A stretch of DNA of 64,000 nt from Shimia sp. (GTDB lineage Bacteria > Pseudomonadota > Alphaproteobacteria > Rhodobacterales > Rhodobacteraceae), in the NCBI RefSeq assembly GCF_965227725.1, contig NZ_CBDDGH010000004.1:78536-142535 (forward strand). The letters are read 5' to 3'. Below the pieces are notes generated by a model. The model saw nothing but the letters and a program-made list of their open reading frames with translations. It ran no database searches and was not told the origin of the DNA. Made by a program: the position numbers and the translations under genes. Shown piece after piece: positions 5,482 to 40,935 of the stretch. Numbering within the stretch: position 1 is the first letter of the stretch; each line of letters starts with the position of its first letter.

Positions 5482-5493
5482 GAGTCTCCTCCC

Positions 5494-11074: not shown

Positions 11075-11105
11075 CCCGCAACACTTCAGCCGAACTGACA
11101 GATTT

Positions 11106-11142
11106 GAAGCGCCGCAGTCCCCTCTGCGGCGCTTCTTACTTT
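11106..11142 (+). terminator. Rho-independent terminator of the acyl-CoA ligase gene
   Basis: Perfect 12-bp stem gaagcgccgcag (11106-11117) / ctgcggcgcttc (11124-11135) with a 6-nt loop, followed by ttactttg. It lies 32 nt after the stop codon. Confidence 0.7.
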
Positions 11143-11294
11143 GCCCCCACCACAGAAGTCCGCAACGCGTGCCCTGCCTCCTGCGCCCGATACCGAGTGC
11201 TCGGAAGCTGATCTGCACCGAAGGGCTGGAACCACACCAGTTTGACCCGCTCAGCACCAAGCTCGCCCATTCTCATCAGCCGTCAGCTCATACC

Positions 11295-12098
11295 CTAGCC
11301 ATTCGGCGCAGGAGGCGTCGGTTGCACAAACGCACGCTGCAGCATCGAAGAGCGCACCCAAGGCACTTGTACCCCTTGCGTCTGGCGCACCACATCGACC
11401 CGAATGCGGCGCAGCACATCCTCCAACGGCGGGGCCTTTTGTGTGACATGGCGCAAGAAAGCCTGCGCAAAAGGGCTGTGGCCATTTTGGCCGTCATAAG
11501 CCACCGTGCCCGGTGAAGACGCAAAAGCGATGGCCACTCCGGCCTCCATGGCACGCCTGCTTCCGCCAATCCCGCCCATGATCGGAGATACAACCGAACG
11601 GCATGCGTCAAAAAATATGATCTTGTTGCGCGGTTTATCCGAGAGCGCCTGCACAATGGCGGAGAGTGGCACCGTTTGAGACAAAGCCCCCATCTGCGCC
11701 TCCGTCGGGCTTTGCGCTGGCGGATCAAACTGCGTCCCATTCATCGCATCCACCGGCACGTAAAAGGCCTGCCCCGCCTGCATCACCCCATGCCCGGCCA
11801 GATAAACCACCACCTGCCGCGCATCGACAGCGGCCCAGCGCAAAACGGCCAGCGTGCGCATCACCTCCGCCTGTGTCGGGTTTTCAAGGTGCATCACACT
11901 ATAGCCCAGCGCATGCAGACGCGCCGCAATCTCCCCGCTATCCGCCACCGCATTGGATAGCGCCGCCGCCCCCGGATAGGCCCCGCTTCCAATCACCAGC
12001 GCGACATACCGCTGGTCGCGAATGTCGGCCCATCCGGCGTGCGCAACGCCCACGACACCGATCAGCAGGACAACCAGAGCCCGGCAAATCACTTGCAA
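11295..12098 (-). CDS. Caspase family protein (peptidase C14) with N-terminal signal peptide
   Basis: 267-aa ORF. The signal-like N-terminus is MQVICRALVVLLIGVVGVAHAGWA. The catalytic dyad context is VVYLAGHG (His) and IIFFDACRS (Cys). The start overlaps the upstream OmpA-like gene by 10 nt. Confidence 0.8.
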   Translation of the reverse strand: MQVICRALVVLLIGVVGVAHAGWADIRDQRYVALVIGSGAYPGAAALSNAVADSGEIAARLHALGYSVMHLENPTQAEVMRTLAVLRWAAVDARQVVVYLAGHGVMQAGQAFYVPVDAMNGTQFDPPAQSPTEAQMGALSQTVPLSAIVQALSDKPRNKIIFFDACRSVVSPIMGGIGGSRRAMEAGVAIAFASSPGTVAYDGQNGHSPFAQAFLRHVTQKAPPLEDVLRRIRVDVVRQTQGVQVPWVRSSMLQRAFVQPTPPAPNG

Positions 12099-24627: not shown

Positions 24628-25737
24628 ATGGAAATGGCGCAAATTCCTTTTCTTGACCTGCGCGCCGGATATCTGGAGCTGCAAACTGATATCGACGCTG
24701 CGGTGGCCCGTGTCCTAAATAGCGGGCACTATATTCTTGGCCCGGAAGTCAGCGCCTTTGAAGAAGCCTACGCGACTTACTGCGGTGCAGCGCACTGCTT
24801 GGGTGTGGGCAATGGGCTGGACGCTCTGTGTCTGAGCCTTCGAGCCCTTGGCGTCAAGGCTGGCGATGAAGTGATCGTTCCGTCTCATACCTTTGTGGCA
24901 ACCTGGCTTGCGGTTTCCGCAGTGGGGGCTACCCCGGTGCCGGTCGAACCAGACCCACAGACCTATAATATTGATACGTCGCGTATTGATGACGCTGTCA
25001 CCGAAAGAACTCGGGCGATCATTGCCGTGCATCTATATGGCCAGCCAGCGGATCTTGACCCCCTATTGGCTGTTGCTCGCAGGTTAGGCGTTCCGCTGAT
25101 TGAAGATGCGGCGCAGTCCCATGGAGCCACCTACAAAAATCACCGTATCGGTGCTCATGGGGACGTGGTTTGCTGGAGTTTCTACCCCGGCAAGAACCTA
25201 GGCGCCCTTGGAGACGGGGGCGCAGTCACCACAAACCGCGCAGATATTGCCGAACGCGTGCGCACCATTGGCAACTATGGCTCTCGCGAGAAATACGTCA
25301 ACGAGGTCATAGGAACCAACAGCCGTCTGGACCCACTGCAGGCCGCGATCCTGAACGTCAAGCTGAAGCACTTGAACCAATGGACAGAGGCCCGTCGCCG
25401 CCTTGCAGATCGCTATAGCAACTCGCTACAAGGCGTTATACGCCCGCATGTCCCGGACTGGGCCAATCCCGTTTGGCATCTCTATGTGATCCGGCATCCC
25501 CAGCGCGATACTCTGATGAAGAAACTTGCCGAAGAAGGCATCACCACGCTGATACACTACCCAATTGCACCACATCAGCAGCAAGCCTACACACAGCAGG
25601 GCCACGCAAAAGGGGCCTTTCCCCTGGCGGAACAATTTGCAGATGAATTGCTCAGCCTACCTATCGGACCACAGATGCCCGAGGCAGATCAGGACAGGGT
25701 CATCGAAACCGTGAACCGCCTGACCGATGCTCTGTGA
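24628..25737 (+). CDS. DegT/DnrJ/EryC1/StrS family aminotransferase (FdtB/WecE-like dTDP-keto-sugar transaminase)
   Basis: 369-aa ORF. The N-terminus (M)AQIPFLDLRAGYLELQTDIDAAV..VLNSGHYILGPEV..FE and the SFYPGKNLGALGDGGAV block (PLP lysine region) are typical. An alternative ATG lies at 24634. Confidence 0.9.
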   Translation: MEMAQIPFLDLRAGYLELQTDIDAAVARVLNSGHYILGPEVSAFEEAYATYCGAAHCLGVGNGLDALCLSLRALGVKAGDEVIVPSHTFVATWLAVSAVGATPVPVEPDPQTYNIDTSRIDDAVTERTRAIIAVHLYGQPADLDPLLAVARRLGVPLIEDAAQSHGATYKNHRIGAHGDVVCWSFYPGKNLGALGDGGAVTTNRADIAERVRTIGNYGSREKYVNEVIGTNSRLDPLQAAILNVKLKHLNQWTEARRRLADRYSNSLQGVIRPHVPDWANPVWHLYVIRHPQRDTLMKKLAEEGITTLIHYPIAPHQQQAYTQQGHAKGAFPLAEQFADELLSLPIGPQMPEADQDRVIETVNRLTDAL

Positions 25738-25758
25738 TGGCTGGGTTAGAAGCATAAG

Positions 25759-26727
25759 ATGGCGCAGCTCTCTTTATCCTACATTCTACTGACCTATAAT
25801 CAGAAGAACACCGTTCGCGAGGCAGTTGTCAGCGCTCTGAAACAGGATGTGCCAGACCTGGAAATTGTCATTACAGACGATCATTCTACCGATGGCACCT
25901 TCGATGAAATCGAAGCCGTCGTGGCAGCTTACAACGGCCCCCATAGGATCATTTTGAACCGCAATCCAAAGAACTTGGGCTTGGCTGGCAATATTGACAT
26001 GGCACATCGTCTCAGTTCGGGGGATGTTCTGGTTGCCGCCGCTGGGGACGACCTATCATATCCTCAGCGCTGCCGCCGCATCCAAGAGGCTTTCAGCCGA
26101 GGTTCGCCGCTTTTGGTATGCTCTTATGTCCAAGCGATTGACCCCGAAGGCAATCCGGTGCCTGGGGATTTCCGTACTGCATTGTTTTATCGCAGCTGGA
26201 ATTTGACACAGGCAGCCAAATCAAAGGCGCTTTACATAGGGGCAACCGGAGCATGGCACCGCAGCCTCTATGAGAACTATGGCCCGATGGATCCAACAGC
26301 CTACGAAGACCTTGTCTTCGGGTTTCGTGCGGCGCTGGAAGATCGTGTCACTGTCTTGGAAGAAGAGTTGGTGCAGTATCGTCTGGGCCTGGGCCTGACC
26401 TCCTCCGACTTTTCCCACGCGGACATAGCAGCCTTTGAAGAGAAGCGCAGAAAAGGTTTTCTCGCGCATAAGGGCGTGATGCACCAGCGGATAAAGGACG
26501 CAGAAAACTTTGGACTGAGCGGCAGCTCTGAGGTCTTACGTGTCCTGCGAAGAGCACAGATCAAGGCCGCGCTTGGGCTGGCCTATTACGAAAATCAATC
26601 CGGTGCCTTCACCAGCTTGCTTCTGAGACATCCATTGCTGGGACTGGCGACTTGGCGATCGGAACGCCGCCGCAGAAACAAGTTACGCCAACAGCTACAA
26701 GCGCAGGCAGTCGGCCGTGACGGCTGA
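25759..26727 (+). CDS. Glycosyltransferase family 2
   Basis: 322-aa ORF with the GT2 N-terminal motif SYILLTYNQKNTVREAVVSALKQDVPDLEIVITDDHSTDGT and a DxD-like AAAGDD. Confidence 0.85.
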   Translation: MAQLSLSYILLTYNQKNTVREAVVSALKQDVPDLEIVITDDHSTDGTFDEIEAVVAAYNGPHRIILNRNPKNLGLAGNIDMAHRLSSGDVLVAAAGDDLSYPQRCRRIQEAFSRGSPLLVCSYVQAIDPEGNPVPGDFRTALFYRSWNLTQAAKSKALYIGATGAWHRSLYENYGPMDPTAYEDLVFGFRAALEDRVTVLEEELVQYRLGLGLTSSDFSHADIAAFEEKRRKGFLAHKGVMHQRIKDAENFGLSGSSEVLRVLRRAQIKAALGLAYYENQSGAFTSLLLRHPLLGLATWRSERRRRNKLRQQLQAQAVGRDG

Positions 26728-27146
26728 AATCACGGTTTTAACGCCCATCTATGATGGCACAATATGCCTGACAGAGACGCTGCATCCAGTGCGGCAGGCT
26801 GGTTTGGATTTTGAATTTCTGTGCTCTAATGAGCCTTCGAAAGCAATGCATCTCGCCGTTCAGAAGACGAACGGCTTCTGCTGTCCCAGTTTCACCGCCT
26901 TGCACTGCAATCCAATGTCTGGTTTCGCTTGCTAGCGTGTATCTAAACTTTTTCTCAAAAAGGAAACCCAAGAGGCCATACCGTTAAGCGCCATAATCCC
27001 GCTTTGGATTGGGGTGTTACCTGCCCCCGAAAGGTTGCTTACGGCCTGTTGAAAGTGAGTAAGATACAAACTTGTCAGACTTGATTGCGTTTTGGTAGTT
27101 GGCATTTCGTGATCTCAATTATGAAGTAAATCAGGAAACCTTCAAA

Positions 27147-27572
27147 ATGAGCCAAAGCAACTCTCAGTTTGACGAGAATGTCCGTCTTGTTGATTTGCCC
27201 GTGATCTCCGACCCGCGAGGAGATCTGACCTTTATGGAAGGGGGGCGTCACATCCCGTTTGATATCCAGCGCGTTTACTATCTTTACAACGTGCCTGTTG
27301 ATGCGGAGCGGGGTGGACACGCGCATCGAGAACTGGAGCAAGTCGTTTTTGCCCTGTCCGGAAGTTTCCGAATGAAGATTGATGATGGGAAAACCAAGCG
27401 AGACGTATGGTTGCGCAGCCCAAAGAAGGGCCTCTACATCAGGAATTTAATTTGGCGGGAAATGGACAAATTCAGCCAAGGCGCCGTATGCATGGTTCTC
27501 GCCTCTCAACCCTATGATGAAGCGGACTACTATCGGGATTACGAAGAGTTCCTTGCCGCCGCACGCAAGTGA
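27147..27572 (+). CDS. FdtA/WxcM-like dTDP-4-keto-6-deoxyhexose 3,4-ketoisomerase (cupin)
   Basis: Track ORF 27099..27572 trimmed to MSQSNSQ. LVDLPVISDPRGDLTFMEGGRHIPFDIQRVYYLYNVP..ERGGHAHRELEQVVFALSGSF and LASQPYDEADYYRDYEEF closely follow the FdtA family pattern. Confidence 0.85.
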   Translation: MSQSNSQFDENVRLVDLPVISDPRGDLTFMEGGRHIPFDIQRVYYLYNVPVDAERGGHAHRELEQVVFALSGSFRMKIDDGKTKRDVWLRSPKKGLYIRNLIWREMDKFSQGAVCMVLASQPYDEADYYRDYEEFLAAARK

Positions 27573-28702: not shown

Positions 28703-29857
28703 TTGAAGTTGGATCACAAAGGCTATCAGGCACTCGAAAAAATTTACGATACAGCGGTTAATCCCGGAAGCTGGCGCAAGGCATTGGATTCAACTGCGGC
28801 CGTCGTCGACGCCAAGGCTATCGCCCTGGTGGTCAGGGGCCGCAATGCCGGTGCAAAAGATTTGACGCTGATGTCCACTGTCTACCTAGATTTCTCCCGT
28901 ACGCCCGCAGGTTGGTACTATAGTGCTTGGCTTTCCCGGCTCCAAAACCAGGATTGGGATTTTCTCCAGGAGCAACCAACGCATTACCCAACTCCAGATA
29001 TCGAAACGGGTATTCCACCCGAAGTTCTCGACCGCCGAAAAGACTATGCGTATTTGAAGAAGAGAACTGGCATTGCTCGGCGACTTGGAGTCCGTCTGAA
29101 CGAAGATCCCGTCTGGTTCGATGCAATGAGTATAGGTTTTGATCGCACAGTTTATGAAATACCAGCAGTAGCAGGCGATCGCACGCGCGCCTTGCTCCCC
29201 CACCTAACGAAGTCTTTGGAGATAGGTCGGGTATTCGCTTTTCTGAAGGCCCGCTATAAAGCGGCACTCACTGCCTTGGACCGAATTCAAGCAGGGATTG
29301 CACTTGCGCTACCAGATGGACAGGTAATCGTGAAAAACGCGGAAGTGGAAAGAATTGTTAGTCTTAAGGATGGTATGTTTTTGGCTCGCGATGCCAGAAT
29401 AGTCACCTCGGACCCAGAAACTACATCTAAAATACGAGCGCATATTTTTGAGGTGGCGTCTACAGCTCGGGGCCAGGCAAACCTGCACGAATCTCTTATC
29501 TCTGTAAGGCGGCCTTCCGGACAGACACCGTATCTTCTGGACATTGCTCCGATCAGTGACAGCAAGGCAGAATTAGAGCATGGATTGGAGGGGGCTCTCG
29601 TGACCATAATCGATCCAGAACGGGCCCCATATCTTAGGCTGGACCGGTTTACTAAGCTTTATGACCTGACGCAGGCTGAAACTGACGTCTGTCGCTGGAT
29701 CGCTGAAGGAGCTAGCGTCGCAGAGATCGCGGAAAAGCGAAACACCAGTCCTACTACGGCGAAAAATCAGGTAGCCGCAGTACTTTCTAAAGCGGGCGTC
29801 AGCAGTAGAATCGAATTGATAAGGCTCATCCTTCGCGTATTACCGCCCGTAGCTTGA
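28703..29857 (+). CDS. LuxR/FixJ-type HTH transcriptional regulator with about 310-aa uncharacterised N-terminal domain
   Basis: 384-aa ORF with a TTG start at 28703 and GGAG at 28692-28695. The C-terminal LuxR HTH is LTQAETDVCRWIAEGASVAEIAEKRNTSPTTAKNQVAAVLSKAGVSSRIELIRLIL. I see no AHL-binding or receiver motif. Confidence 0.8.
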   Translation: MKLDHKGYQALEKIYDTAVNPGSWRKALDSTAAVVDAKAIALVVRGRNAGAKDLTLMSTVYLDFSRTPAGWYYSAWLSRLQNQDWDFLQEQPTHYPTPDIETGIPPEVLDRRKDYAYLKKRTGIARRLGVRLNEDPVWFDAMSIGFDRTVYEIPAVAGDRTRALLPHLTKSLEIGRVFAFLKARYKAALTALDRIQAGIALALPDGQVIVKNAEVERIVSLKDGMFLARDARIVTSDPETTSKIRAHIFEVASTARGQANLHESLISVRRPSGQTPYLLDIAPISDSKAELEHGLEGALVTIIDPERAPYLRLDRFTKLYDLTQAETDVCRWIAEGASVAEIAEKRNTSPTTAKNQVAAVLSKAGVSSRIELIRLILRVLPPVA

Positions 29858-30046: not shown

Positions 30047-30694
30047 ATGACCAATTATGCTGCGATAACCAGCCCGGCTGCTGCCCTGACATCCATTCAA
30101 CAAGCACTCAAAGCGCTGGGCTACAATCCAGGCCCGATTGACGGTGACTTTGGCCGTCGCACACGCAAAGCCGCCGAAACCTGGCTCGACAATGATGGCA
30201 AACCCGCTGAGATGCAGCAGGTCGCCGCTACCACCAGCGCTGGAGGCATGATCTACCAGGACCCTGGGCACCATGCGGTGAATGAAATTGTGGTACATTG
30301 CACGGCTACTCGACCCGAATGGTATGAAGGGCGTTCTATTGAAGAGAAGATTACTGAAATCCGCCGATGGCACGTATCAGATCGCGGTTGGAACGACATA
30401 GGTTACCACTACGTGGTTGACCGAGACGGCAGCGTTGCACAAGGACGTGCTGAAACAGTCGTCGGCGCACATGTGAGAGGCCACAATCGCGGGACAATCG
30501 GTATTTCCCTGGTAGGAGGCTTCGGCTCGTCGGAAACCGACATCTTCAGTGACAACTTCACGGAAGCGCAAGAAACCGCATTGCGTAACTTGATATCAGA
30601 TATCGGACGCCGGACTCTGATCCGGAAAATCAACGGCCACAACGATTATGCTCAGAAAGCTTGCCCAGGTTTCAAGGTCAGCGAGTGGTTGTAA
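30047..30694 (+). CDS. N-acetylmuramoyl-L-alanine amidase (Amidase_2/PGRP) with N-terminal PG_binding_1 domain, endolysin-like
   Basis: 215-aa ORF. PG_binding_1: IQQALKALGYNPGPIDGDFGRRTRKAAETWL. Amidase_2: IVVHCTAT...WNDIGYHYVVDRDGSVAQGR...GAHVRGHNRGTIGISLVGG...NGHNDYAQKACPGF. There is no signal peptide. Confidence 0.85.
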   Translation: MTNYAAITSPAAALTSIQQALKALGYNPGPIDGDFGRRTRKAAETWLDNDGKPAEMQQVAATTSAGGMIYQDPGHHAVNEIVVHCTATRPEWYEGRSIEEKITEIRRWHVSDRGWNDIGYHYVVDRDGSVAQGRAETVVGAHVRGHNRGTIGISLVGGFGSSETDIFSDNFTEAQETALRNLISDIGRRTLIRKINGHNDYAQKACPGFKVSEWL

Positions 30695-31146: not shown

Positions 31147-32003
31147 ATGAGGTTCCAGTTCATTGAAGAGCATGGCCACGAATTCTCGACCAACCGCCTT
31201 TGTCAGGTCTTGGGTGTCAGCAACCGTGGCCTGCGCGCCTATCGCAGCCGCCCGGCCAGCCAAAGGCAGCAGACTGACATGGTTGTCTTGGCTCACATCA
31301 AAGAACAGTCCCGTCTCAGCTTAGGCAGCTATGGTCGTCCACGCATGACCGAAGAGTTGAAAGAGATGGGTCTGAACGTCGGGCATCGCCGGGTTGGCAG
31401 ATTGATGCGGAAGAATGGAATACGGGTCGAACGGTCCCAAAAATACAAGGTGACCACTGACAGCAACCACGCCCTCAACATCGCCCCGAACCTGTTGAAA
31501 CGAGACTTCAACGCGGATGGCCCCAATCAGAAATGGGCCGGGGACATCAGTTATGTTTGGACCCGAGAGGGATGGCTCTACCTTGCCGTCATTCTTGACC
31601 TGCATTCCCGACGGGTAATCGGCTGGGCGGTCAGCAACAGGGTGAAGCGTGATCTGGCGATCCGAGCGTTGAAGATGGCCGTAGCTCTTCGGCAGCCACC
31701 AAAAGACTGCATCCACCACACCACAGTGGCAGCCAATACTGCTCTCACGATTACCAGAAGCTGCTGCGCCAGCACGGCTTCCAGGTATCGATGAGTGGCA
31801 AAGGCAACTGTTATGACAACTCAGCTGTGGAAACCCTCTTCAAAACGATCAAGGCAGAGCTGATTTGGCGAAGGTCATAGCAGACGCGGCGGGACGCTGA
31901 GTTAGCCATCTTCCAGTACATCTACGGCTTCTACAATCCGCGCCGAAGGCACTCAGCATTGGGCTGGAAAAGCCCGGTCGCCCTCGAACGGAAAGTAGCC
32001 TAA
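31147..32003 (+). pseudogene. IS3-family transposase OrfB (DDE), frameshifted and with premature stop
   Basis: The reading MRFQFIEEHGHEF...NQKWAGDISYVWTREGWLYLAVILDLHSRRVIGWAV...CIHHT loses frame at about 31722-31724, an apparent 1-nt deletion in the HTD(S/R)GSQY block. In the shifted frame it reads GSQYCSHDYQKLLRQHGFQVSMSGKGNCYDNSAVETLFKTIKAELIWRRS, then TAG at 31878-31880, then QTRRDAELAIFQYIYGFYNPRRRHSALGWKSPVALERKVA*. Confidence 0.75.
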
Positions 32004-32363: not shown

Positions 32364-35261
32364 TTAACCTAATATGTCGTCAGCATAGATCGTTGAAATT
32401 TCCAAGCTCGCAATCCGATACAACATGTCATTTGCGGGATCCGAAGACCTAAACGACACCGCATCAAACACCTGACTTGCCTCTACGCTGGCGCTGCCCC
32501 CATTGCTAAGATATGCGGCATCGCTTCCAATCAAGCTAAAGTGCCCTTCAGAATCTGCTGTCCAGAAATCTACCGTAACGTCCACGATATCCATTTCTTC
32601 GGAAGCCAGATCGAGCGAGAAAGCGGCTCCGGTGCCGACGACTTGCTCTGATTTGAGTTCAAAGAACAGCACTTCGTTTTCATTGATGTATGCGCGTTCG
32701 TCCTCTGTTTGATCCCAAGGCCCATAGCCCCCCTCGGTCCCTTTGCCTTTGTCCCGAACACCAAAAGCGGCTCCGAATCCAGCAGTGCTGGCATAGCTAT
32801 TGACCTCTTGTTTAATCACATCGCCAATGTTCAGGTCCGCGCCGAAACCGGCATCGCGAGCCGTATCTCTGTCGACAAAAACGAGCGTGTCTTGCAAGCC
32901 TGTTTCCATGTCGTATGTAAACGCCGCCACATCTACGATGTCCACAGAACTATCGGTCCCCCAATCTTTGTTCTGCTCAGCTTTGCCTGCTCTATTGAGC
33001 TCAAACAGTGCCGGACCATCCGTATTTTCACCATCCGCTACAGTTTTATGAAGTTCTTGCGACAAAAGCATTCGTTCTTTTGAATTCACAAAAAACGAGC
33101 CACGATCAAATTCGATATGCGAGTTGACCTCGATTGTCTCACTTTCCCCGATACTAACCTGGATAGAAGCAGTCGCCTGCTCTACTCCCCCACGACCATC
33201 ATCTATTTGATAGACAAAGCTCTGCTCAACTATTTCACCAGGCGCTGCGAGATCAAATAGGTCTCCTTTGGCCTCATAGCTAAAAGTCCCGTCAGGATTC
33301 AGAGACAACACACCATCCATTGGCCCAGAAACCAGCGAGACGGACAAATTGTCTCCGTCCGGGTCAAAATCTGAACCGCTTCCATTGTCATCTAGAACGT
33401 TACCCGACAGCGCGCTATTTTGGGAAACCGTGAACATATCATCCAAAGCTATTGGAGGCGCATTCACTGTGGCGAACTCCACTGTTATCTCGGAATTGTC
33501 ACCAACCACTTCAACATTAAATTCAGCTCCCTCGAAATCACCTTCCAGCGTGATTGTCCCATCGACGTCACCGTCGCCATCTTCGTCAATATCCAAAATT
33601 GCAGAGCCGGAAGTAACGGTAAGCCATTCCTTAAGCAGCTTAACCTTTTCAATGATGAGTTTTATCTGATCAGTGAAGCCGGTGATGACATCCCCATCAA
33701 GCGCCTTAAGCTCTCCAGCAACTGAACCAGTTCCTGCTGCGAGGTTAAATTCTTCCTTTGTTTCAGAGGCCACAAGCGCGTTCTGACCAACTACGCCATT
33801 GACAACTTTAAAGATATCCTCGCCAGTTGCACCATCAAGGAGCAACTCAAAATTGGTGACGTAAATCGCTGAGTCCAGTATGTAGTCACCGGTATCGGAA
33901 ACGGCAATTTTTATGCTATTTTGCCCTTGCTCTAGGTCTGGCCGGACCGACAACGCCCCAAATCCGTCCCATTCTATTGGGTACACGCCTGAGGTGTTGT
34001 CAACGAAGTTGAGCGCAAGATTCTCATCAATAACACTAAGAGGGGTGCTGGGGTCACCATTGAACAGAGCTGCATTGCTTCCATTAACAAAGACAGCAGC
34101 CACATCAATCACAGACGTATTCGAGAATTCAGGATACTCATCAGAACCGAACACGATGTCGAACCGAATGCCGTCCACATCTGGGTCGTCTACAAAAATA
34201 TCGAACTCAAGCACTGACGCATCAAGCGATTCCCCGGCACCATCAAACGCATCGCGGGCAACAGCGCTGAGATCAGAGTCACCGGGCGCATTATGCGACA
34301 CAGAAAAGTCAGTACTCGTATTTGAAGGTCCCGGGAACCCACCCGAGGACAGAAGTACCCCCCCTTCAAAATCAATACCCACACCGGGTATTTCAAAATC
34401 TTTGACCAGGAAGGCCGCGTTTTCGCTGCCAGTATAAGTCACATTCGAAATAGCACCACCAAGAATTGACTGCAGATAGAGCTCGGCAACATCACTCCCA
34501 GATGCAACACCGAATTCGTTCGCTGCTCCGGCGAAGGAAATAGTTTCTTCAGGGGCAATAAAAGTACCACCATTTTCATCGTTAGCGTCGGAAAACAAGG
34601 AATAATCCGCACCAAAATAAGGCGTGCTGAAGGCGTCTGGGCTGTTAGGGACGTCAGAGCTGTCTTTGCCAAATGCAGCATAGTAGATAGGTAGCGTGAC
34701 ATCATTTGAACCGTCGGATACAAATTCACTACCCGAGAACTCGACAACAGATGTGCCAAGATGCACGTGTAGATGCTGGCCACGACTGGCACCGACCTCC
34801 TCATCGAGCGAAGACAGGCGCAGGCCAGTCGCACCGGTGTCACCAAACGGCTCCCCAAAGTTGACACGGCCCCAAATCTGGCCAGCACCATACCCGCCTT
34901 CACCAGCAGAAATCCCTAGCGCTGTCTCTAAAAAGTTAGGGGCCATATGGGCATAAGTCACAAAGATTTCTTGGCCATCGACGAAAGATCGAACTGTAAC
35001 ATAGTTGCCATGTCCGCTACCCGCACTTGCGTATAAATCTCCATCTATAAGCGTATTTGGGGGACCCTGAATGAACTCTTCTCCGACGCTTTGACGAAAA
35101 GCGACTATGTCCCCGCTTACAATCGGATAGACAGCGGTCCCGTAAGGGACAGCAAAATCGACACCCCACTTCAGGGCGCCAAAATGGCTAACCTCTTCAT
35201 TAAAGCCTTGCGTAACAATATAGGAACCGCCGGAATAAGGCAGTGGCACCGATTTCGTCAT
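32364..35261 (-). CDS. Large multidomain protein: N-terminal M23 (LytM-type) peptidase, choice-of-anchor-L domain, cadherin-like/VCBS Ig repeat, about 280-aa unknown C-terminal region; no signal peptide
   Basis: Track ORF trimmed to ATG 35261 (MTKSVPLPYSGG...), with GAGGG upstream. M23 blocks: WGVDFAVPYGTAVYPIVSGDIV, GHGNYVTV, VTYAHM, GQHLHVHL. Choice-of-anchor-L-like: GGVLLSSGG...GDSDL...DASVLEFDIFV...FDIVFGSDEYPEF...DVAAVFVNG. Cadherin-like: NAPPIALDDMFTVSQNSALSGNVLDDNGSGSDFDPDGDNLSV. Confidence 0.8.
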   Translation of the reverse strand: MTKSVPLPYSGGSYIVTQGFNEEVSHFGALKWGVDFAVPYGTAVYPIVSGDIVAFRQSVGEEFIQGPPNTLIDGDLYASAGSGHGNYVTVRSFVDGQEIFVTYAHMAPNFLETALGISAGEGGYGAGQIWGRVNFGEPFGDTGATGLRLSSLDEEVGASRGQHLHVHLGTSVVEFSGSEFVSDGSNDVTLPIYYAAFGKDSSDVPNSPDAFSTPYFGADYSLFSDANDENGGTFIAPEETISFAGAANEFGVASGSDVAELYLQSILGGAISNVTYTGSENAAFLVKDFEIPGVGIDFEGGVLLSSGGFPGPSNTSTDFSVSHNAPGDSDLSAVARDAFDGAGESLDASVLEFDIFVDDPDVDGIRFDIVFGSDEYPEFSNTSVIDVAAVFVNGSNAALFNGDPSTPLSVIDENLALNFVDNTSGVYPIEWDGFGALSVRPDLEQGQNSIKIAVSDTGDYILDSAIYVTNFELLLDGATGEDIFKVVNGVVGQNALVASETKEEFNLAAGTGSVAGELKALDGDVITGFTDQIKLIIEKVKLLKEWLTVTSGSAILDIDEDGDGDVDGTITLEGDFEGAEFNVEVVGDNSEITVEFATVNAPPIALDDMFTVSQNSALSGNVLDDNGSGSDFDPDGDNLSVSLVSGPMDGVLSLNPDGTFSYEAKGDLFDLAAPGEIVEQSFVYQIDDGRGGVEQATASIQVSIGESETIEVNSHIEFDRGSFFVNSKERMLLSQELHKTVADGENTDGPALFELNRAGKAEQNKDWGTDSSVDIVDVAAFTYDMETGLQDTLVFVDRDTARDAGFGADLNIGDVIKQEVNSYASTAGFGAAFGVRDKGKGTEGGYGPWDQTEDERAYINENEVLFFELKSEQVVGTGAAFSLDLASEEMDIVDVTVDFWTADSEGHFSLIGSDAAYLSNGGSASVEASQVFDAVSFRSSDPANDMLYRIASLEISTIYADDILG

Positions 35262-36164
35262 AACAATACCCTCAAACCAATTAACTGAGCATGATACACG
35301 CTTGCCGTGTAACACAATAAATATAATCCCTAAATAGTCACAATTTTTACTTCAGTCAAAGTTGTTAAACATCAAACAACAGAAATCAGAGCAGCCACCC
35401 GATTTCCCAAAATCATAAGCAGGATTTTTCCCGGTCAATTCGGACAGAGACATTTCATCTAAATACGGAAGATATTTCTCTATTGTTTGACCGCAAAGTC
35501 ATTTTGCACGGAAATGCACATAGATTTCACGACACGATCAACTCCCAAAAACCTAGACCCATCGGGACCTTTCGCACTCGCACTTACTTTTCTAGAAGTT
35601 CTTAAAAGAAACCTCTTCAGAAAAGATAGCCCCACCCACCTTACCAGCCCACGTTAGAAATCACGTTCTCAAGGGACCGTCATGGTCGGTTTGACCCAGC
35701 CTCTTGACTCGGGCCGATTGGATATTGAATTTACCACGGAGATCTGCGCGTGCCGCTGAACCAGCGAAGATCAGGTCACTTATTACCACCTAAAAACAGG
35801 GATAATTGGGATCAACTTCTTGGCCTCTGAGATGGCCTGAGCTAAAACTGAGTGATACCCGAAATTATCTTGAAGAACGGTTGCGCTTCAATCTTTGCAG
35901 AAAAGGCTTGCTTTCATCGCCGATCACATCTGCTGGGGAATTCGGCAATCCCTATTTTAAGAAACATCTGAAAAGTTGATAGAACTCACCTTTGCCGGGC
36001 CCAAAAAAACTGACATCGGCAAGCGAAATCTCTCTCCTCCGGAGAAGGCATAGCCCTCATTAACAGAGAGCCTAAAATGAACTGAAACCAAAAAGAGAAC
36101 AAAACGCGCAAATGGAGAAATAGAAACCAAAATACCAATCTAAACCAATGCAACCAACCAAAAG

Positions 36165-36193
36165 TTGAAAGAATCGAATTTATATATTACAAT
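36165..36193 (+). promoter_or_regulatory. Near-consensus sigma70-type promoter TTGAAA-N17-TACAAT
   Basis: Read directly from the sequence: TTGAAA at 36165-36170, a 17-nt AT-rich spacer (gaatcgaatttatatat), TACAAT at 36188-36193. It lies about 40 nt upstream of the mini-ORF start at 36234. Confidence 0.5.
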
Positions 36194-36233
36194 AAACGTT
36201 ACTTAATTCTTCCGATTTAGCGGAGTGATTGCT

Positions 36234-36344
36234 GTGAAGTCAGCCTTGGTATTGATTGTTTTGTGCGCTGCGTTTTTTGCAGCATCCCCTTCCTCGGTGC
36301 ATTCTCAGGTGGGGTGCGACCCTTCGCGCGAACGGTGCCGATAA
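36234..36344 (+). CDS. Candidate mini-ORF: 36-aa secreted pre-peptide (24-aa signal peptide plus 12-aa two-Cys peptide)
   Basis: Below the ORF-track size cut-off. GTG at 36234 follows GGAG (36222-36225) by 8 nt. Codon-by-codon translation gives (M)KSALVLIVLCAAFFAASPSSVHS/QVGCDPSRERCR*, with TAA at 36342-36344. The stop is 17 nt before the next gene. There is no homology evidence. Confidence 0.4.
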   Translation: MKSALVLIVLCAAFFAASPSSVHSQVGCDPSRERCR

Positions 36345-36361
36345 AGTAGCATTGTAACGTC

Positions 36362-38380
36362 ATGTCTACGGACGGTATGCACGACATTGTCGCATTGTTT
36401 TTTGGCGTCGGCATTATAATCGCATTTTCCCATGAACGTTTTAACCGGATCTCCTACGAGACCGGCAAACGTCTTGATCGGCTTGTATCGTTTCTTACAC
36501 CAGATAAATTGCGCGCACGCCGGCAGGTTACCTATGCATATTTTATCTACACGCTTTCGCTGATCATCCTCTATTTGATCTTGTGCGGCTATGCCGAGAT
36601 TCTGCTACCTCTCATCGGGGGGCAAAATCTTTTGCCCGAGATCGGGGCGAGCACTCTGCCCTCTGAAGCGTCGACGAGCCCGCCTCCAGCGTCAGACACC
36701 GCACCCGAACCGACGACGGGTTTCGCCCCCATGGAATCTTCGGCGATCGAGTTCTGGATAGCAAACCTTGAACCCACCGTGAGTTCTGAGCCCGTGGAAA
36801 CCAATTCAGGTGTCAATATCGCGCCCGAAGTCTCCATGGGACTGGCCCTGATCATGGTCGGTCTAGCGCCTTCTATAAAGGCTTTGGTGCGCGTGGATGA
36901 ATGGCTGCGTATGTTTGCCCATCGCGTTGCGGGAATACCGACCTGGGTGATAGATACCTCGGACGCTTTGCGGTCGAACGCCAAGGTTTTACGGTTCTTC
37001 ACGGACAGCGAAGCCGACAATTCCAGCGAATATCTTATTTCAGAACCCGAGCGCAAACGTGTTATAGATTTGCACGAAAAGGCCAAGCCGTTTCTGGGCA
37101 ATCTGGATGATTTCATCCTGAATATCGAGGTCATTCTTGTTGCATCGGCGTGGTTTCTTGATGAAAAGCTGCGGATCACGGGGACCGGTGACAAAAACCG
37201 CTTCGAAGAAATAGAAAATGAGCTTCGTCGCCGAAAGAACGAGTTGTTCAGCAATGCGAATAGTCCCGATCTTTCCCATGAAGGCTGGGAGGCTGTGGCC
37301 ACTGCCGCAGATGAATTGGCCAGCGATTTCTGCGTTCTGATTGCTCTTTATGACGAACAGGACGTCATTCACCCCTATGATCAGCGCCCGGCCCCCACAG
37401 AAAGCCAGCGCCGCGCCCGGGATAGGCTGAGGCAATTCGTAGACGTCCTTTACAAGAACAAGACTGAACCATTGATGCAGCGCCGCGGCAACAATCTGGC
37501 GCTTTTCTGGACACTGGCGATCGTGCTGAGTTGGACAGTCGCCTGGGCGGTGCTGTGGCCGGGGCAAGCGGAATTCAATTTGATCTGGGACACGCTCAGC
37601 AGTGACACCTATCGGAGGATCAGGCTGTATTCGGTCAACGCATTCAACACCTACTGCATCGCCACGATCGTTGCGATCACATTTCGCTGGGTCCGCATGA
37701 CTTCGGTTGCTGAAGACGGCCAGCGAAAATGGGAAAACATGCGCTATCCCAATCACTGGACACGCTGGCTACCGCAGGCACTAAGCCTGTTTTCCATTGC
37801 CTTCTTGGTTTCTACAGCATTGAACATAGCGGTTCAGCTATGGCTCACGGAAACCAGAACACCCGAAGCAGAAGCCTGGCGAATGACATTCGAAGAGTTC
37901 ATAATTTCGATCCGCTGGCGTTTTGAATACATGGGCCCAATTTCTTTCCGCGCGGCATGTTTGGCGCTGCTTGTAACAGTGCTTTTGGATGCGAGGCAGC
38001 GGTTGTGGACCGACGCGGGCCGGTATGAGCAGAAACAGCTCAAGAGACATAAGTCTAGCGACCAGATGAAATCGAATGCCAAAACATGGCGCGAGTTGTC
38101 AATGCTGGACAGTCTGTCTTGGGTCGCGGTGGGAGCGTTGATGATGCTGATCATCACCCCCGTCATGCGCTATCTGTCATTTTTGGCGGCCACGCAGGAC
38201 TATCCTCGAGATTTCGATCATATAGACGCCGGGTTGATGATCTGGGCGACGCTTTACGCCGTTGTTCTGGCAGCTGCGGTGATGTTCTGCCTGTCCGAGG
38301 TACTTACCCGGCGCGCCTTCTATCGTGCCTCAAAGGATCCAGCCGACGGTCGAGTTTTAGAAGCTGCGGGGGAAGAATAA
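36362..38380 (+). CDS. Hypothetical polytopic membrane protein (672 aa), no recognisable domain
   Basis: By eye there are about nine hydrophobic helices: 3 in the first 170 aa and about 6 after residue 390. They are separated by a Pro/Ser/Thr/Glu-rich loop and a ~220-aa charged soluble region. The first ATG has a weak RBS, and ATG 36377 is an alternative. The stop overlaps the next start (TAATG). Confidence 0.7.
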   Translation: MSTDGMHDIVALFFGVGIIIAFSHERFNRISYETGKRLDRLVSFLTPDKLRARRQVTYAYFIYTLSLIILYLILCGYAEILLPLIGGQNLLPEIGASTLPSEASTSPPPASDTAPEPTTGFAPMESSAIEFWIANLEPTVSSEPVETNSGVNIAPEVSMGLALIMVGLAPSIKALVRVDEWLRMFAHRVAGIPTWVIDTSDALRSNAKVLRFFTDSEADNSSEYLISEPERKRVIDLHEKAKPFLGNLDDFILNIEVILVASAWFLDEKLRITGTGDKNRFEEIENELRRRKNELFSNANSPDLSHEGWEAVATAADELASDFCVLIALYDEQDVIHPYDQRPAPTESQRRARDRLRQFVDVLYKNKTEPLMQRRGNNLALFWTLAIVLSWTVAWAVLWPGQAEFNLIWDTLSSDTYRRIRLYSVNAFNTYCIATIVAITFRWVRMTSVAEDGQRKWENMRYPNHWTRWLPQALSLFSIAFLVSTALNIAVQLWLTETRTPEAEAWRMTFEEFIISIRWRFEYMGPISFRAACLALLVTVLLDARQRLWTDAGRYEQKQLKRHKSSDQMKSNAKTWRELSMLDSLSWVAVGALMMLIITPVMRYLSFLAATQDYPRDFDHIDAGLMIWATLYAVVLAAAVMFCLSEVLTRRAFYRASKDPADGRVLEAAGEE

Positions 38381-39627
38381 TGAAAGCCAGTGTCTGGATT
38401 TCACTGTTGAGCTTGGCTTGCCTGCCAGCACTTGCCTTTGGACAAAATATCCAACTTGAGACCGCTGTAAAAGAGGATCGGAAAATCATCATGGGCGCGC
38501 GCACCGATGTGCCGCCATTCATCTGGAAGGACAAAAGAACCCAAAAATACCGCGGGCTTTTTTGGGATATCTGCGTTGAGGCACTCGTGCGCTCAAATCG
38601 GCCATTCGAAACCGTGCCGATTTCGGCGGGGCAACGATCGGACCTTTTGTCCAAAGGCAGTTATTGCACAGAGGACGGCGAGACATACGTCACATGCACC
38701 GCCGAGATCGCGACAGTGGAACTGCTGTGCGATCCGACCACTGTAAATCTGAAACGGATGCAGACCTTCTCAGAAATAGATAACGAAGACCAAGGAGAAG
38801 GCCTGCACCGCTTTGTTTTCTCCCCCATCCTTTATCTGGCAAATGGTTCGTATTTTCAGCTGGGCTATCCAAGAAGAGTGTTTCGTGAACAGCTTGCAAC
38901 GACCCTGAAGCTTAGATGCACTCAGTTCCCCGAGTTGGAGCCTGTTTTTTGCGCCGAGCGCGAACACCCGACCGGTTGGGAATGGCTTCGCCGACCCGAT
39001 ACTGAATCCTTTGAAAAAAAGCCAAGCATAAACTGGACGACTGCCTGTGATGCCATCCTTGAGGCCATGGCGACAGACAAGAACTTGCCGGAAAACACCG
39101 AAGACCCAGAGCGCAAAGTTTGGCCTCCGCAAATCTGGCCGGAGCCGGACCCGGTAAAGCCTGAGTTCGAAATTTGGGGGTACCTCGAAGGGTCGACCAT
39201 CGGTCCGTCAGTTATCAAAGCAGCGGAACTGGCCCCCTCCTCCGTCGGCATTTGCCCCCAAGCTTTTGACTCTCACACCTTAGCCACAGAAGCCTTCTGC
39301 AACGGAAAGATCTACCGCTATTTCGGAGATGTCGATCTCGTTCGAGCGGCGGTCAACGCCTATCGCGCCAACAATACAGATAACGATTGCCCCGCAGACG
39401 AAACGCCCTCTTCTCGTGGGACCTATGAACCCTATGCTTTGGTTCTTTCCAACGAAAAAAGAGGTTTCGCCGAGGACTTCACCCTGGCGCTGTATTCCAT
39501 GTTCACCGATGGCACGATTGCCCAGATGTTCGACGGAAGATTCGGGGAGAGACGTCGGTCTCAGTATCTTGAAACCTTGTTCAGAATTAACAGCATCCCA
39601 ACTGGTGAGGCGAATATCGAGAAATAG
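38380..39627 (+). CDS. Periplasmic solute-binding-protein family 3-like protein, Cys-rich, with large insertion
   Basis: Track ORF 38086..39627 trimmed to ATG 38380 (MKASVWISLLSLACLPALAFG/QN, a signal peptide). SBP_bac_3-like blocks: KIIMGARTDVPPFIWKD, LLCDPTTVNLKR, YEPYALVLSNEKRGFAEDFTLALYSMFTDGTIAQMFDGRFG. The mature part has ten Cys. Confidence 0.7.
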   Translation: MKASVWISLLSLACLPALAFGQNIQLETAVKEDRKIIMGARTDVPPFIWKDKRTQKYRGLFWDICVEALVRSNRPFETVPISAGQRSDLLSKGSYCTEDGETYVTCTAEIATVELLCDPTTVNLKRMQTFSEIDNEDQGEGLHRFVFSPILYLANGSYFQLGYPRRVFREQLATTLKLRCTQFPELEPVFCAEREHPTGWEWLRRPDTESFEKKPSINWTTACDAILEAMATDKNLPENTEDPERKVWPPQIWPEPDPVKPEFEIWGYLEGSTIGPSVIKAAELAPSSVGICPQAFDSHTLATEAFCNGKIYRYFGDVDLVRAAVNAYRANNTDNDCPADETPSSRGTYEPYALVLSNEKRGFAEDFTLALYSMFTDGTIAQMFDGRFGERRRSQYLETLFRINSIPTGEANIEK

Positions 39628-39709: not shown

Positions 39710-39748
39710 AAAAACTGCGGTTTGCGGCCCCCGCCGGAGCCGCAAACG
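39710..39748 (-). terminator. Probable rho-independent terminator of the PhzF-family gene (may also stop the convergent + operon)
   Basis: 8-bp stem tttgcggc (39721-39728) / gccgcaaa (39739-39746) with a 10-nt loop. The A-run at 39710-39714 gives a U-run on the minus transcript. It lies 6 nt past the stop at 39754. Confidence 0.55.
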
Positions 39749-39753
39749 CTTGT

Positions 39754-40935
39754 TCAATGTGTTTCGAGCGAGATGTATACATCCATCTCGGCGTCGGGAT
39801 CAAAATCGCTAAGGTCCATGACCGAAAAGAACATCGCGCATACGGGCGACTCCATCTCTTTTTTGACCACGTCCTGATAATCCTCGTGGCTTCGGAACTG
39901 CACGATATCGAGGTATGTGCCGTCAGGTTTGCGCACAAGTTCGCGGCGCAAGATGCCCGGCTCATGGGCGACAAAGTCCCTTTGAAACACGGCCGAAGCC
40001 GCAAGCAGATCTGCCTCTGTTTTTCCTTCAGCAAGTTTGATCGGTGCCAGAACGGTCACCGGTGACGTCGCCTCCCCATCCGCCCTTGGCGTGTCGGGCT
40101 CTATGATCCGGGTCGCCCCTGACACGCGGATCCCTTCGCCCGGTGTGGCACTGAACTGCGCTTTCAACAGCGACCGCGCCCCCATGTCTTCTCCTTGCAC
40201 GATGTCGATCCCACCCTCATGTGGCCAGCCGATATCGCGCAGATAGCCAGACAATGCGGCGGCGGCGGCCCCTGTCGCGGGGTCTTCAGCCACGCCGCCA
40301 ATGGAAAAGGCATTGCGGCTGTGAAAAAGGCGCGGTGTTTCCGCCCACAACAGACTGATCGTCGTCAGATCATGCGCCCGCATGAGCTGCGCACCTTCCG
40401 CCAAATCATATGACATTGCCGCAAGCCTCTGTCTGTCGCGCAATGCAAGGATCAGGTGATTGTTCCCGGCATTGGCGCGCGCGGGTGGCAATGCCGGGTC
40501 AAGATCGGCGGCTTTCAGGCCAAAAAGCGCAAGCCCCGCCGCCACCAGATCCGGGTCCGCCTCAGCGCTGTGAGTGGGAGGAGAGGTCAGCGTGGCGCTG
40601 CCGTCATTTTTGGTTTCCACGCTGATGCGACCCGAATTCAGATCAAGTTGAAACAGTCCGGCACCCTCTCGCGCAGTCAGGGCGTTGCCCAGCGCGATGG
40701 TGGCATGTCCGCAAAAAGCCACCTCTTCCTCGGGCGAGAAGTAGCGCACCCGCCATGCGTCACCCTGAGGCGCGGCGAAGACTGTTTCGGAATATCCCAC
40801 CTCCTGAGCGAGGCGCTGCATTTCAAAGTCGGTGGGAAGCGTATCGCCGAGCACGACACCTGCGGGGTTGCCGCCTGTGGCGCCATCGGAGAAGGCCGCC
40901 ACTCTGAGAACGTTCAGGTTGATGCTATCTTTCAT
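39754..40935 (-). CDS. PhzF-family isomerase fused to a C-terminal ~100-aa ferredoxin-like (ABM/Dabb-like) domain
   Basis: 393-aa ORF. PhzF N-terminal blocks: LRVAAFSDGATGGNPAGVVL, GYSETVFA, RYFSPEEEVAFCGHATIA. The extra C-terminal segment VTVLAPIKLAEGKTEADLL...ILRRELVRKPDGTYLDIVQFRSHEDYQ is assigned to ABM-like only by pattern. Confidence 0.8.
   Translation of the reverse strand: MKDSINLNVLRVAAFSDGATGGNPAGVVLGDTLPTDFEMQRLAQEVGYSETVFAAPQGDAWRVRYFSPEEEVAFCGHATIALGNALTAREGAGLFQLDLNSGRISVETKNDGSATLTSPPTHSAEADPDLVAAGLALFGLKAADLDPALPPARANAGNNHLILALRDRQRLAAMSYDLAEGAQLMRAHDLTTISLLWAETPRLFHSRNAFSIGGVAEDPATGAAAAALSGYLRDIGWPHEGGIDIVQGEDMGARSLLKAQFSATPGEGIRVSGATRIIEPDTPRADGEATSPVTVLAPIKLAEGKTEADLLAASAVFQRDFVAHEPGILRRELVRKPDGTYLDIVQFRSHEDYQDVVKKEMESPVCAMFFSVMDLSDFDPDAEMDVYISLETH

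Follow-up and report, generated by a model that had tools for sequence, protein, structure and literature searches.

The window analyzed here is a stretch of 64,000 nucleotides from Shimia sp. (contig NZ_CBDDGH010000004.1). It contains three adjoining genes, here called the trio. The first is a mini open reading frame (mini-ORF) for a small peptide that is predicted to be secreted. The second encodes a 672-amino-acid (aa) membrane protein with nine predicted transmembrane (TM) segments, and the third encodes a protein related to the family 3 solute-binding proteins (SBPs). This order of peptide, membrane protein, and SBP is kept across about 37 loci in about 30 lineages, which come from the Rhodobacterales, the Rhizobiales, and unplaced metagenome contigs. 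As read from the sequences, the trio may be an envelope-spanning unit of ligand, receptor, and transducer that controls or gates adjacent lytic enzymes. We put the probability of this whole chain at about 0.4. Within it, we rate the ligand-receptor core as more probable than the output.

An initial annotation of the window had described three packed reading frames on the same strand, and all of the sequence features lie where it placed them (Table 1). The end of the mini-ORF (36344) and the start of the 672-aa ORF (36362) are separated by 17 nt. The ORF of the SBP-like protein starts at 38380, which is the A of the TAA stop codon of the membrane gene. Where gene calls are available, the two genes overlap at start and stop or are at most 14 nt apart. 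The proposal that the three genes form a module also held far beyond this genome, and the synteny spans membrane-protein identities from 99% down to about 21%. The nearest relatives were found in Shimia sp. R9_2 (99% protein identity for the membrane gene) and Shimia sp. R9_1 (96% for the SBP-like gene). No universal fourth gene was found in an all-against-all BLAST of the ORFs from 15 loci.

Natural fusions of the membrane protein and the SBP-like protein were found in at least 10 representative clusters that are mutually less than 50% identical. The members have 940 to 1170 aa, with the SBP_bac_3 region at the C terminus. Three fusion sequences were read, and in these a hydrophobic helix at the junction replaces the SBP signal peptide, which fits a membrane protein with its C terminus inside. 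The peptide gene is present at the fusion loci too. Because natural fusions occur in divergent clusters, sequence comparison indicates that the membrane protein and the SBP-like protein very probably work as one unit.

The trio was found in very different genomic settings, including plasmids of Ensifer, Sinorhizobium, Rhizobium, Mesorhizobium, Marinibacterium, and Palleronia. Leisingera sp. SS27 and Neorhizobium alkalisoli have a frameshift in the membrane gene, and most of the module is deleted in Rhizobium sp. BK376. Judged from these sequences, the trio behaves as a mobile accessory unit. No relatives were found on viral contigs (IMG/VR), and a phage origin was dismissed. The peptide ORF is intact in all three degraded copies (L007, 8001-10017; L016, 8001-9876; L017, 8001-9159).

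A micro-ORF homologous to the mini-ORF ends 10 to 70 nt 5' of the membrane gene at every locus with upstream DNA present. Upstream DNA was inspected in 14 species genomes, 10 metagenome contigs, 5 plasmid records, and 11 contigs reached via protein look-ups. At one locus, where the contig is truncated at the 5' end (L014), the tail of the peptide is still visible. The precursors share a general layout: M-[K/R], 10 to 15 hydrophobic residues, a break of Pro, Gly, Ser, or Thr, a small-x-small site, and then usually Gln. The mature peptide has 10 to 13 residues in all loci but one, and its consensus is Q-x(0-3)-C-[N/D]-P-x4-C-R. The motif counts rest on 30 tabulated peptides that have a C-x6-C ring. 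Ring position 2 is Pro in all of them, and ring position 1 is Asn or Asp in 28. One residue follows the second Cys (Arg in 27 of the 30). The N-terminal residue of the mature form is Gln in 27. Small residues occupy -3 and -1 in 30 of 30, and residue -1 is A, S, or G. By a rule-based judgment, the precursors carry Sec signal peptides. The most frequent mature forms are QCNPAVQQCR or QTACNPAVQQCR, and the form in the window is QVGCDPSRERCR.

The codons of the peptide vary synonymously across loci (TGC/TGT, AAT/AAC, all four CCN, and four CGN), and all three stop codons occur. The synonymous variation therefore points to selection on the peptide. On this comparative evidence, the mini-ORF is a true conserved gene under protein-level selection. 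RefSeq has no coding sequence at the peptide position in the plasmid records of R. leguminosarum, Mesorhizobium, and Palleronia.

Three other assignments of the peptide were dismissed. It does not read as a lipoprotein, since the residue before the Cys is often Q or T and an AxA site followed by Q lies upstream. An arrest peptide of the SecM/VemP type was dismissed on general grounds, since 36 codons are too few for the product to have left the ribosome tunnel, and selection acts on the mature part as a protein. A match to TIGR04200 (PExPT-CTERM; E 0.014) was taken to be a resemblance between signal peptides. The peptide core C-D-P-S (36315-36326; C-N-P-A elsewhere) resembles an invariant loop of the SBP-like protein, C117-D-P-T-T (38728-38742), by coincidence or mimicry.

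The third protein of the trio matches PF00497 below threshold (14.5 bits against a cut-off of 26.4; E 0.029). It has 74 homologs, most of which have a precomputed PF00497 match. The profile of this family matches the Glu-binding protein 5eyf (E 1.9e-8) and also PEB1a, AncQR, and DEBP. By this transitive evidence, the SBP-like protein is a divergent member of the family 3 binding proteins. In 21 sequences, R41-x-D43-x-x-P46-F47, C117-D-P-T-T121, R126, G316-D317, and Y349-E-P-Y-A are invariant. From the alignment, by eye, we take D43, T121, R126, and D317 to be the equivalents of GlnBP D10, T70, R75, and D157. Those GlnBP residues hold the ammonium and carboxylate groups of the ligand. The protein also contains a variable insertion of 100 aa. 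It had been described as a Cys-rich SBP3-like protein. The signal peptide, the ten Cys of the mature form, and the relation to SBP3 (by way of the family) were all found, but only six of the ten Cys are conserved family-wide. Five of these are invariant (C65, C117, C292, C307, and C337) and the sixth is nearly so; the other four are clade specific. No component of an ATP-binding cassette (ABC), tripartite ATP-independent periplasmic (TRAP), or tripartite tricarboxylate (TTT) transporter and no kinase is conserved beside the gene in the 15 loci compared, as had been proposed for the window. Some loci do have ABC genes, which are parts of unrelated clusters (sugar or sulfatase).

The 672-aa protein has a predicted topology of nine TM segments with the N terminus out and the C terminus in (hydropathy and the positive-inside rule). 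The loop at residues 82 to 154 is acidic, is rich in Pro, Ser, and Thr, contains no Lys or Arg, and is predicted to be periplasmic. Residues 176 to 375 make up a charged insert of 200 aa that is predicted to be a cytoplasmic, all-helical domain. The nine hydrophobic segments, the loop, and the insert had all been named in the initial annotation. It had also called the membrane and SBP-like proteins orphans, which the 74 homologs of the latter contradict, as do the 226 clusters (50% identity; E ≤ 1e-3) that an exhaustive profile search found for the former. The membrane-protein family itself could be placed nowhere, as the annotation had supposed. It has no match in Pfam, NCBIfam, PADLOC, or PHROG, no PDB sequence match by family profile, and no description in the literature searched.

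An AlphaFold2 model of the membrane protein, made with a 106-sequence alignment, is entirely helical (predicted local distance difference test [pLDDT] score, 83.9; predicted TM-score [pTM], 0.82). An earlier model made with 12 sequences was mediocre (pLDDT 68.5). Foldseek searches with the 106-sequence model gave no significant match (best E 0.46 in PDB and 0.19 in BFVD), and the PDB search with the 12-sequence model was likewise negative. The top matches (MATE, MurJ, XPR1, and G-protein-coupled receptors) were dismissed as noise because their TM-scores were at most 0.25 and their E values at least 0.46. Weak Pfam matches to Trp_oprn_chp and DUF1634 (E about 0.02) were dismissed as matches of hydrophobic segments. 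No internal repeat was detected in the TM domain with hhalign. Because the predicted structure is confident and has no relative in Pfam or PDB, the family may represent a new membrane-protein fold.

Among the 106 sequences, conservation of the membrane protein peaks in TM1 to TM3 and in the cytoplasmic-side helix that leaves TM3 (E179, R183, H187, G191, I192, and P193). W264, W457, and D543 are conserved too. All of these residues, from E179 to P193 and the three others, are cytoplasmic in the predicted topology, and the periplasmic loops are poorly conserved. C75 in TM2 and C643 in TM9 are invariant in a 12-sequence alignment (A1), but they are not among the conserved residues of the wider family.

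The promoter sequence proposed upstream of the mini-ORF is present. It lies 41 nt upstream of the start codon and is the sole match at 10 of 12 positions in a scan of 35.3 to 39.9 kb. As a bare pattern, it is not above chance (2 matches with at most 2 mismatches in 64 kb, against 1.4 expected). Its position is retained at the loci of Ruegeria atlantica (TTGAAA...TAAAAT) and Leisingera sp. SS27 (TTGATA...TATAAT), where the flanks have diverged. We credit the candidate promoter because of its position and its conservation in these loci, not because of pattern statistics. The arrangement GGAG-N8-GTG is identical in Ruegeria, and the Leisingera sequence is GGGG. A search of the leader for known RNAs gave only a sub-threshold match to the PhrS element, which lies within the SBP gene and was dismissed.

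An A-rich repetitive stretch of AAACCAAAA-like units (36060-36160) lies immediately 5' of the -35 hexamer, in an 850-bp AT-rich divergent intergenic region. It is absent as a conserved element from Ruegeria and Leisingera. It may act as an UP element or bind a regulator.

The trio had been thought to end at a hairpin downstream of the SBP-like gene. Only on the minus strand is the stem followed by a T-run, and the hairpin is for this reason assigned to the convergent PhzF-like gene as its intrinsic terminator. For the trio, it is at most a weak bidirectional stop. The PhzF-family isomerase (39754-40935, minus strand) has a weak C-terminal extension like an ABM monooxygenase, and the GC content is back to normal there.

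The trio adjoins genes for peptidoglycan hydrolases, caspase, trypsin, C1, or S8 proteases, lipases, nucleases, or heme peroxidases in about 17 of the about 30 lineages (Table 1). The N termini of these enzymes were inspected, and nearly all are signal-less. Targeted tblastn searches showed that the GDSL-caspase proteins are one homologous family found in eight lineages and that a C1-like family of 797 aa occurs in five. Small enzymes with a peptidoglycan-binding (PGB) domain and an amidase, CHAP, or NlpC-like domain occur in 5 lineages. Small peptidoglycan hydrolases like the amidase of the window adjoin the trio in L024, L028, L040, and L041. The window counterparts of these neighbors are a 965-aa M23-like protein and this endolysin-like amidase.

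Table 1. Features of the trio and its surroundings in the window, and enzyme genes that adjoin the trio at other loci (L numbers)
Locus	Feature	Coordinates	Strand	Basis or remark
Window	Endolysin-like protein, PG_binding_1 + Amidase_2	30047..30694	+	Pfam; phrog_822 amidase, E 2e-50
Window	965-aa protein: M23-like N terminus, choice-of-anchor-L, cadherin/Big_9 domains	32364..35261	-	Pfam and NCBIfam matches
Window	Candidate sigma-70-like promoter TTGAAA-N17-TACAAT	36165..36193	+	Sequence read and scan (10/12 positions)
Window	Shine-Dalgarno sequence GGAG	36222..36225	+	8 nt ahead of mini-ORF GTG
Window	Mini-ORF, 36 codons + stop, GTG start	36234..36344	+	Sequence; homologs at related loci
Window	Predicted Sec signal peptide MKSALVLIVLCAAFFAASPSSVHS	36234-36305	+	AxA cleavage rule, Q at +1
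Window	Predicted mature peptide QVGCDPSRERCR, 12 residues	36306-36341	+	
Window	672-aa polytopic membrane protein	36362..38380	+	ORF; hydropathy
Window	415-aa SBP_bac_3-like protein, predicted periplasmic	38380..39627	+	Signal peptide 38380-38442, cleavage between AFG and Q
Window	G+C-rich hairpin	39720..39747	-	T-run after stem on minus strand only
L002	C14 + M15_3 protein; 797-aa protein			Co-directional cluster with trio
L003, L016	PG_binding_1 proteins			
L007	GDSL + caspase + M15_3			
L011	C1-like protein; Trypsin + Endonuclease_NS			
L018	GDSL + Amidase_3 + M15_3; Trypsin_2; Abi_2			
L021	Tle1-like lipase; 584-aa lysozyme-domain protein			
L022	Trypsin-like peptidase			
L023	Caspase; chitosanase; L,D-transpeptidase-like; C25; Rap1a/Tai			
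L024	Amidase_2; S8; Trypsin + GDSL + Exo_endo_phos			
L028	PGB1 + CHAP			
L027	An_peroxidase	2686-4482		One of four separate lineages
L028	An_peroxidase	10023-11666		One of four separate lineages
L037	An_peroxidase	2544-5576		One of four separate lineages
L042	An_peroxidase	2113-3828		One of four separate lineages

The most complete associated arsenal was found on a plasmid of Palleronia sp. THAF1 (NZ_CP045421.1, 85295-90721 and 1-8363; L040/L042/L043). It is one co-directional cluster across the record origin, in the order hypothetical protein, PAP2, S8, heme peroxidase, C1 peptidase, GDSL-caspase, PGB/NlpC-like hydrolase, peptide, 9-TM protein, and SBP. The GDSL-caspase gene spans the record origin and is hence unlisted. 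The C-terminal part of the 797-aa C1-like protein (residues about 585-760) and the N-terminal region of the GDSL-caspase proteins are homologous. This adaptor-like domain has the motif ADPS..EEL..YF.VDQE.SG.F.P and no Pfam assignment; it is shared between L002 (1145-3538) and L023 (6320-8230), L007 (13621-17001), and L040 (4-1791). A KatG-type peroxidase adjoins the trio in the Roseibium-like loci L009 and L032.

Trypsin-NucA "System 3" conflict systems have been described in Alphaproteobacteria, where most of them occur (Kaur, Burroughs, Iyer, and Aravind 2020, PMC7159879, section 32). Several trio neighbors match this system, with trypsin + Endonuclease_NS, S8, caspase, papain-like, and lysozyme-type effectors. 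The likeness to System 3 and other caspase-centered conflict systems lies in the effector genes beside the trio, and the difference is the trio itself. A text search of that paper found no mention of the trio and no solute-binding component in System 3.

In the window, the trio lies in a low-GC island at about 27 to 40 kb (GC 0.45 to 0.53, against about 0.60 in the flanks). The island had been described as littered with insertion sequences. Its low GC content was confirmed, but only one transposase fragment (rve/HTH_21; 31147-31794, plus strand) was verified in it. Sugar-modification genes (DegT aminotransferase, GT2, and FdtA) lie at its left edge (24628-27572). The island looks composite. 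It also encodes a 384-aa protein (28703-29857, plus strand) with a C-terminal GerE/LuxR helix-turn-helix and an N-terminal 320 aa without assignment. A GerE protein and a response regulator are likewise found upstream of the fused module at L027.

The amidase gene is in the same island, 5.5 kb upstream of the trio and with no phage genes around it. Its product is signal-less, as read from the N terminus. The 965-aa protein is encoded by an associated gene outside the core, divergent from the trio. The initial annotation had called it a signal-less M23 cell-wall hydrolase and linked it to the trio. Its divergent orientation and the lack of a signal peptide at its N terminus were confirmed, but the M23 label rests on a sub-threshold Pfam match (E 0.019) and on HxxxD and HxH-like motifs judged by eye. 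The suspected link to a cell-wall hydrolase is independently supported: about half of the lineages have signal-less peptidoglycan enzymes or proteases adjacent. A targeted tblastn found no homolog of this M23-like protein in other trio loci.

By analogy, the trio most resembles in function an SBP-dependent sensor (LuxPQ) combined with a pheromone cassette beside a variable arsenal (Blp). It lacks both the domains and the export route of these systems. With LuxP-LuxQ, TorT-TorS, and ChvE-VirA it shares a periplasmic binding protein, in those systems the reporter of ligand occupancy, whose polytopic or bitopic inner-membrane partner is encoded adjacent to it. LuxQ, TorS, and VirA are histidine kinases, whereas the membrane partner in the trio is not, and its likely ligand would be encoded in the same operon. 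No HisKA/HATPase_c, HAMP, MCPsignal, or GGDEF/EAL domain was found in the window protein or in the 19 long family members scanned. The Blp, Com, and Agr systems of Gram-positive bacteria are alike in having a small exported peptide and a membrane receptor next to variable antagonistic genes. In contrast to them, the peptide of the trio uses a plain Sec signal peptide instead of a GG-leader and ABC transporter or AgrB, and there is no two-component output. Their pheromones diversify into pherotypes, whereas the trio peptide is strongly conserved across families and its hosts are Gram-negative. No conserved gene for processing or export was found with the trio in the 15 loci, and no kinase, response-regulator, or RRNPP-type tetratricopeptide-repeat receptor domain occurs within it.

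The likeness to transport systems is also partial. The SBP-like protein shares the fold family, a signal peptide, and pocket-equivalent residues with the family 3 SBPs (PF00497; GlnH/HisJ type; 5eyf, 2v25, and 2ia4). It differs in its sub-cut-off match, its variable insertion of 100 aa, its six conserved Cys, and its coupling or fusion to an unrelated 9-TM protein, and it is never beside an ABC permease or ATPase; no conserved adjacent pair of BPD_transp_1 and ABC_tran genes was found in the 15 loci. TRAP (DctPQM) and TTT (TctABC) systems also combine an SBP with one or more membrane proteins, lack an ATPase, and have three genes with one small product. However, searches of Pfam and NCBIfam and of folds found no homology to DctP/Q/M or TctA/B/C, and the small product of the trio is a predicted cleaved peptide, not a 4-TM subunit. 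In channels of the ionotropic glutamate receptor/GluR0 type, the SBP3-like domain is interrupted by a P-loop potassium-channel pore, whereas the SBP of the trio is a separate protein or a C-terminal fusion. The confident model gave no match to a P-loop channel (best Foldseek E 0.46).

Holin-endolysin cassettes and type 10 secretion (ChiWXYZ and TtsA) are alike in that signal-less peptidoglycan hydrolases adjoin a membrane-protein gene. Holins have 1 to 4 TM segments, whereas the trio protein has 672 aa, 9 TM segments, and a binding-protein partner, and it has no holin match in PHROG or Pfam. PADLOC-DB v2 gave zero matches for all three trio proteins and the M23-like neighbor. The precursors of bufferin-type ribosomally synthesized and posttranslationally modified peptides (RiPPs) are likewise small Cys-containing peptides of Proteobacteria with a Sec signal peptide. 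The trio peptide differs in having a core of only 10 to 13 residues and no conserved modifying-enzyme neighbor; no MNIO/DUF692, DUF2063, or DoxX was found among the neighbors that were scanned or have precomputed Pfam matches. The peptide motifs, or descriptions of such a trio, were not found in the open literature. We rate the trio as new as a system and its third protein as a divergent member of a known fold family, on a basis that is all computational.

In the proposed mechanism, the mini-ORF is translated. Sequence features and conservation show that its product has a Sec signal peptide in which an AxA site precedes Q. Export and cleavage would free a peptide of 10 to 13 residues into the periplasm. 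Its N-terminal Gln would perhaps turn to pyroglutamate (pGlu), and a ring of 8 residues, C-[N/D]-P-x4-C, would form between the two Cys, with Arg after it. The SBP3-like protein would serve as a periplasmic ligand-binding module on the 9-TM protein. Binding is supposed here, and the working of the two proteins as one unit is strongly indicated by the fusions. The co-encoded peptide would be the likeliest ligand or modulator of this module. Occupancy may then be relayed through the 9-TM bundle to the conserved cytoplasmic face (E179, R183, H187, G191, P193, W264, W457, and D543), beside the 200-aa helical domain. Judging from the recurrent neighborhood, the targets of the output may be signal-less lytic enzymes, which form a variable and horizontally mobile arsenal. 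Either the trio would permit their activation, or it would give them passage to the cell wall. The window offers two candidates, the M23-like giant protein and the endolysin-like amidase. The fullest version of this mechanism has a disulfide-looped periplasmic peptide "hormone," pGlu-x-x-Cys-Asn-Pro-x4-Cys-Arg. Its receptor would be a family 3 domain on a 9-TM protein of new fold, and the trio would be a mobile device that arms or gates an enzyme arsenal. We hold this version tentatively and consider it, on the whole, doubtful.

Several findings weigh against this mechanism. At the distant locus L028, the peptide and the membrane protein are kept and no SBP was detected, so the membrane protein may be a direct target of the peptide. 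No SBP columns were found to co-vary convincingly with the peptide type (CDP or CNP). The peptide is more conserved than its proposed receptor, which is unusual for pheromones and would equally fit a role as a subunit or cofactor. C-x7-C rings occur in two distant lineages (L026 and L028), one of them with a long acidic tail, and the C-terminal residue is L, G, or E in 3 of the 30 peptides. An Arg anchor at the C terminus is thus not general. The cytoplasmic domain has no homology to any neighboring protein and no recognizable output fold. The remaining lineages, about half, have only housekeeping neighbors. A rough estimate from general gene densities puts the chance of a peptidoglycan-active gene within 8 kb at about 10%.

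The trio may instead be an SBP-dependent secondary transporter, a third kind beside TRAP and TTT, driven by an ion gradient and serving an amino-acid-like solute. The solute could be a peptidoglycan-derived peptide with the free D-center of meso-diaminopimelate, and the mini-peptide could be a regulatory or structural subunit or a re-imported cargo. The SBP3 fold family normally serves transporters, and D43, T121, R126, and D317 are invariant. The fusion of SBP and membrane protein is as in some ABC importers, and the partner is polytopic with no ATPase nearby. However, the confident model is not like any transporter family or fold and has no internal repeat, the number of TM segments is odd, and the periplasmic loops and TM4 to TM9 are less conserved than the cytoplasmic juxtamembrane site. 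A transporter would also leave the large cytoplasmic helical domain, the strict linkage to the peptide, and the lytic-enzyme neighborhood unaccounted for, and we consider it unlikely. If the peptide were a carrier of a metal, a redox group, or a cofactor, or a modified, RiPP-like product, the larger proteins would mature or handle it and would be unrelated to the neighboring enzymes. Two Cys of the peptide are invariant, six of the SBP are conserved, C75 and C643 are invariant in alignment A1, and heme peroxidases adjoin the trio in four lineages. Yet no modifying enzyme (such as radical SAM, MNIO/DUF692, or YcaO) is conserved nearby, C75 and C643 are not conserved in the wider family, and a disulfide is all that one would expect of a Cys pair in the periplasm. 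This makes such a role very improbable.

Two further explanations overlap with the output step of the ligand-receptor-transducer mechanism and differ in what the output is. In one, the trio is a regulated membrane gate, holin-like or type-10-secretion-like, through which signal-less enzymes would get to the periplasm or the outside, with the SBP domain and the peptide setting its timing or serving as a safety catch in the periplasm. Endolysins that have no signal peptide can reach the wall only through a lesion or channel in the membrane. Signal-less endolysin-like and multidomain peptidoglycan hydrolases recur next to the trio, and co-directional clusters occur in Palleronia and L002. We regard a gate as quite unlikely, given that PHROG holins gave no match, that size and architecture are unlike those of holins, and that the trio is not on viral contigs. 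Many loci also lack such cargo, and it is the cytoplasmic side, not an obvious pore, that is most conserved. In the other, a constitutive periplasmic peptide is part of an envelope-integrity guard in a conflict or abortive-infection system. The receptor would flip and start a protease/effector cascade when the peptide is lost (through a breached outer membrane, proteolysis, or reduction) or when muropeptides that an attacker has released displace it. This would suit the neighbors that match trypsin-NucA System 3 of Alphaproteobacteria (PMC7159879), the Abi_2, VapC, Rap1a/Tai, and integrase or transposase genes that adjoin some loci, the low-GC island here, the patchy distribution, and the pseudogenized copies (L007, L016, and L017). 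But PADLOC models are unmatched, no NTPase or other known sensor is attached, and half of the loci lie outside recognizable islands. The idea is entirely inferential, and a guard function seems rather improbable. The initial annotation had offered a peptide-signal sensing or export unit and an immunity or guard module as alternatives. Specific immunity conferred by the trio is unlikely, because the trio is constant while the neighboring enzymes vary.

The trio is compact (3.4 kb), its peptide is easily synthesized, and it occurs in cultured hosts (Shimia sp. R9_1 and R9_2, Ruegeria atlantica, Ensifer adhaerens Casida A, Rhizobium leguminosarum ATCC 14479, and Palleronia sp. THAF1). The hypotheses can therefore be put to direct test. 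Standard annotation overlooks the peptide gene, a concrete case of a missed functional micro-ORF. The conserved cytoplasmic Glu, Arg, and His residues of the 9-TM family call for explanation. The link between the trio and the enzymes bears on the control, or the access to the wall, of cytoplasmic lytic enzymes in conflict systems. To our knowledge, no Gram-negative bacterium is known to employ dedicated mini-peptides that are ribosomally encoded, exported by Sec, and paired with a cognate receptor in the periplasm. If the peptide is shown to act as a ligand, it would open the field of such mini-peptide signaling in these bacteria. If the "hormone" reading is true, the trio would represent a new class of envelope-spanning signaling or release system in Gram-negative bacteria.

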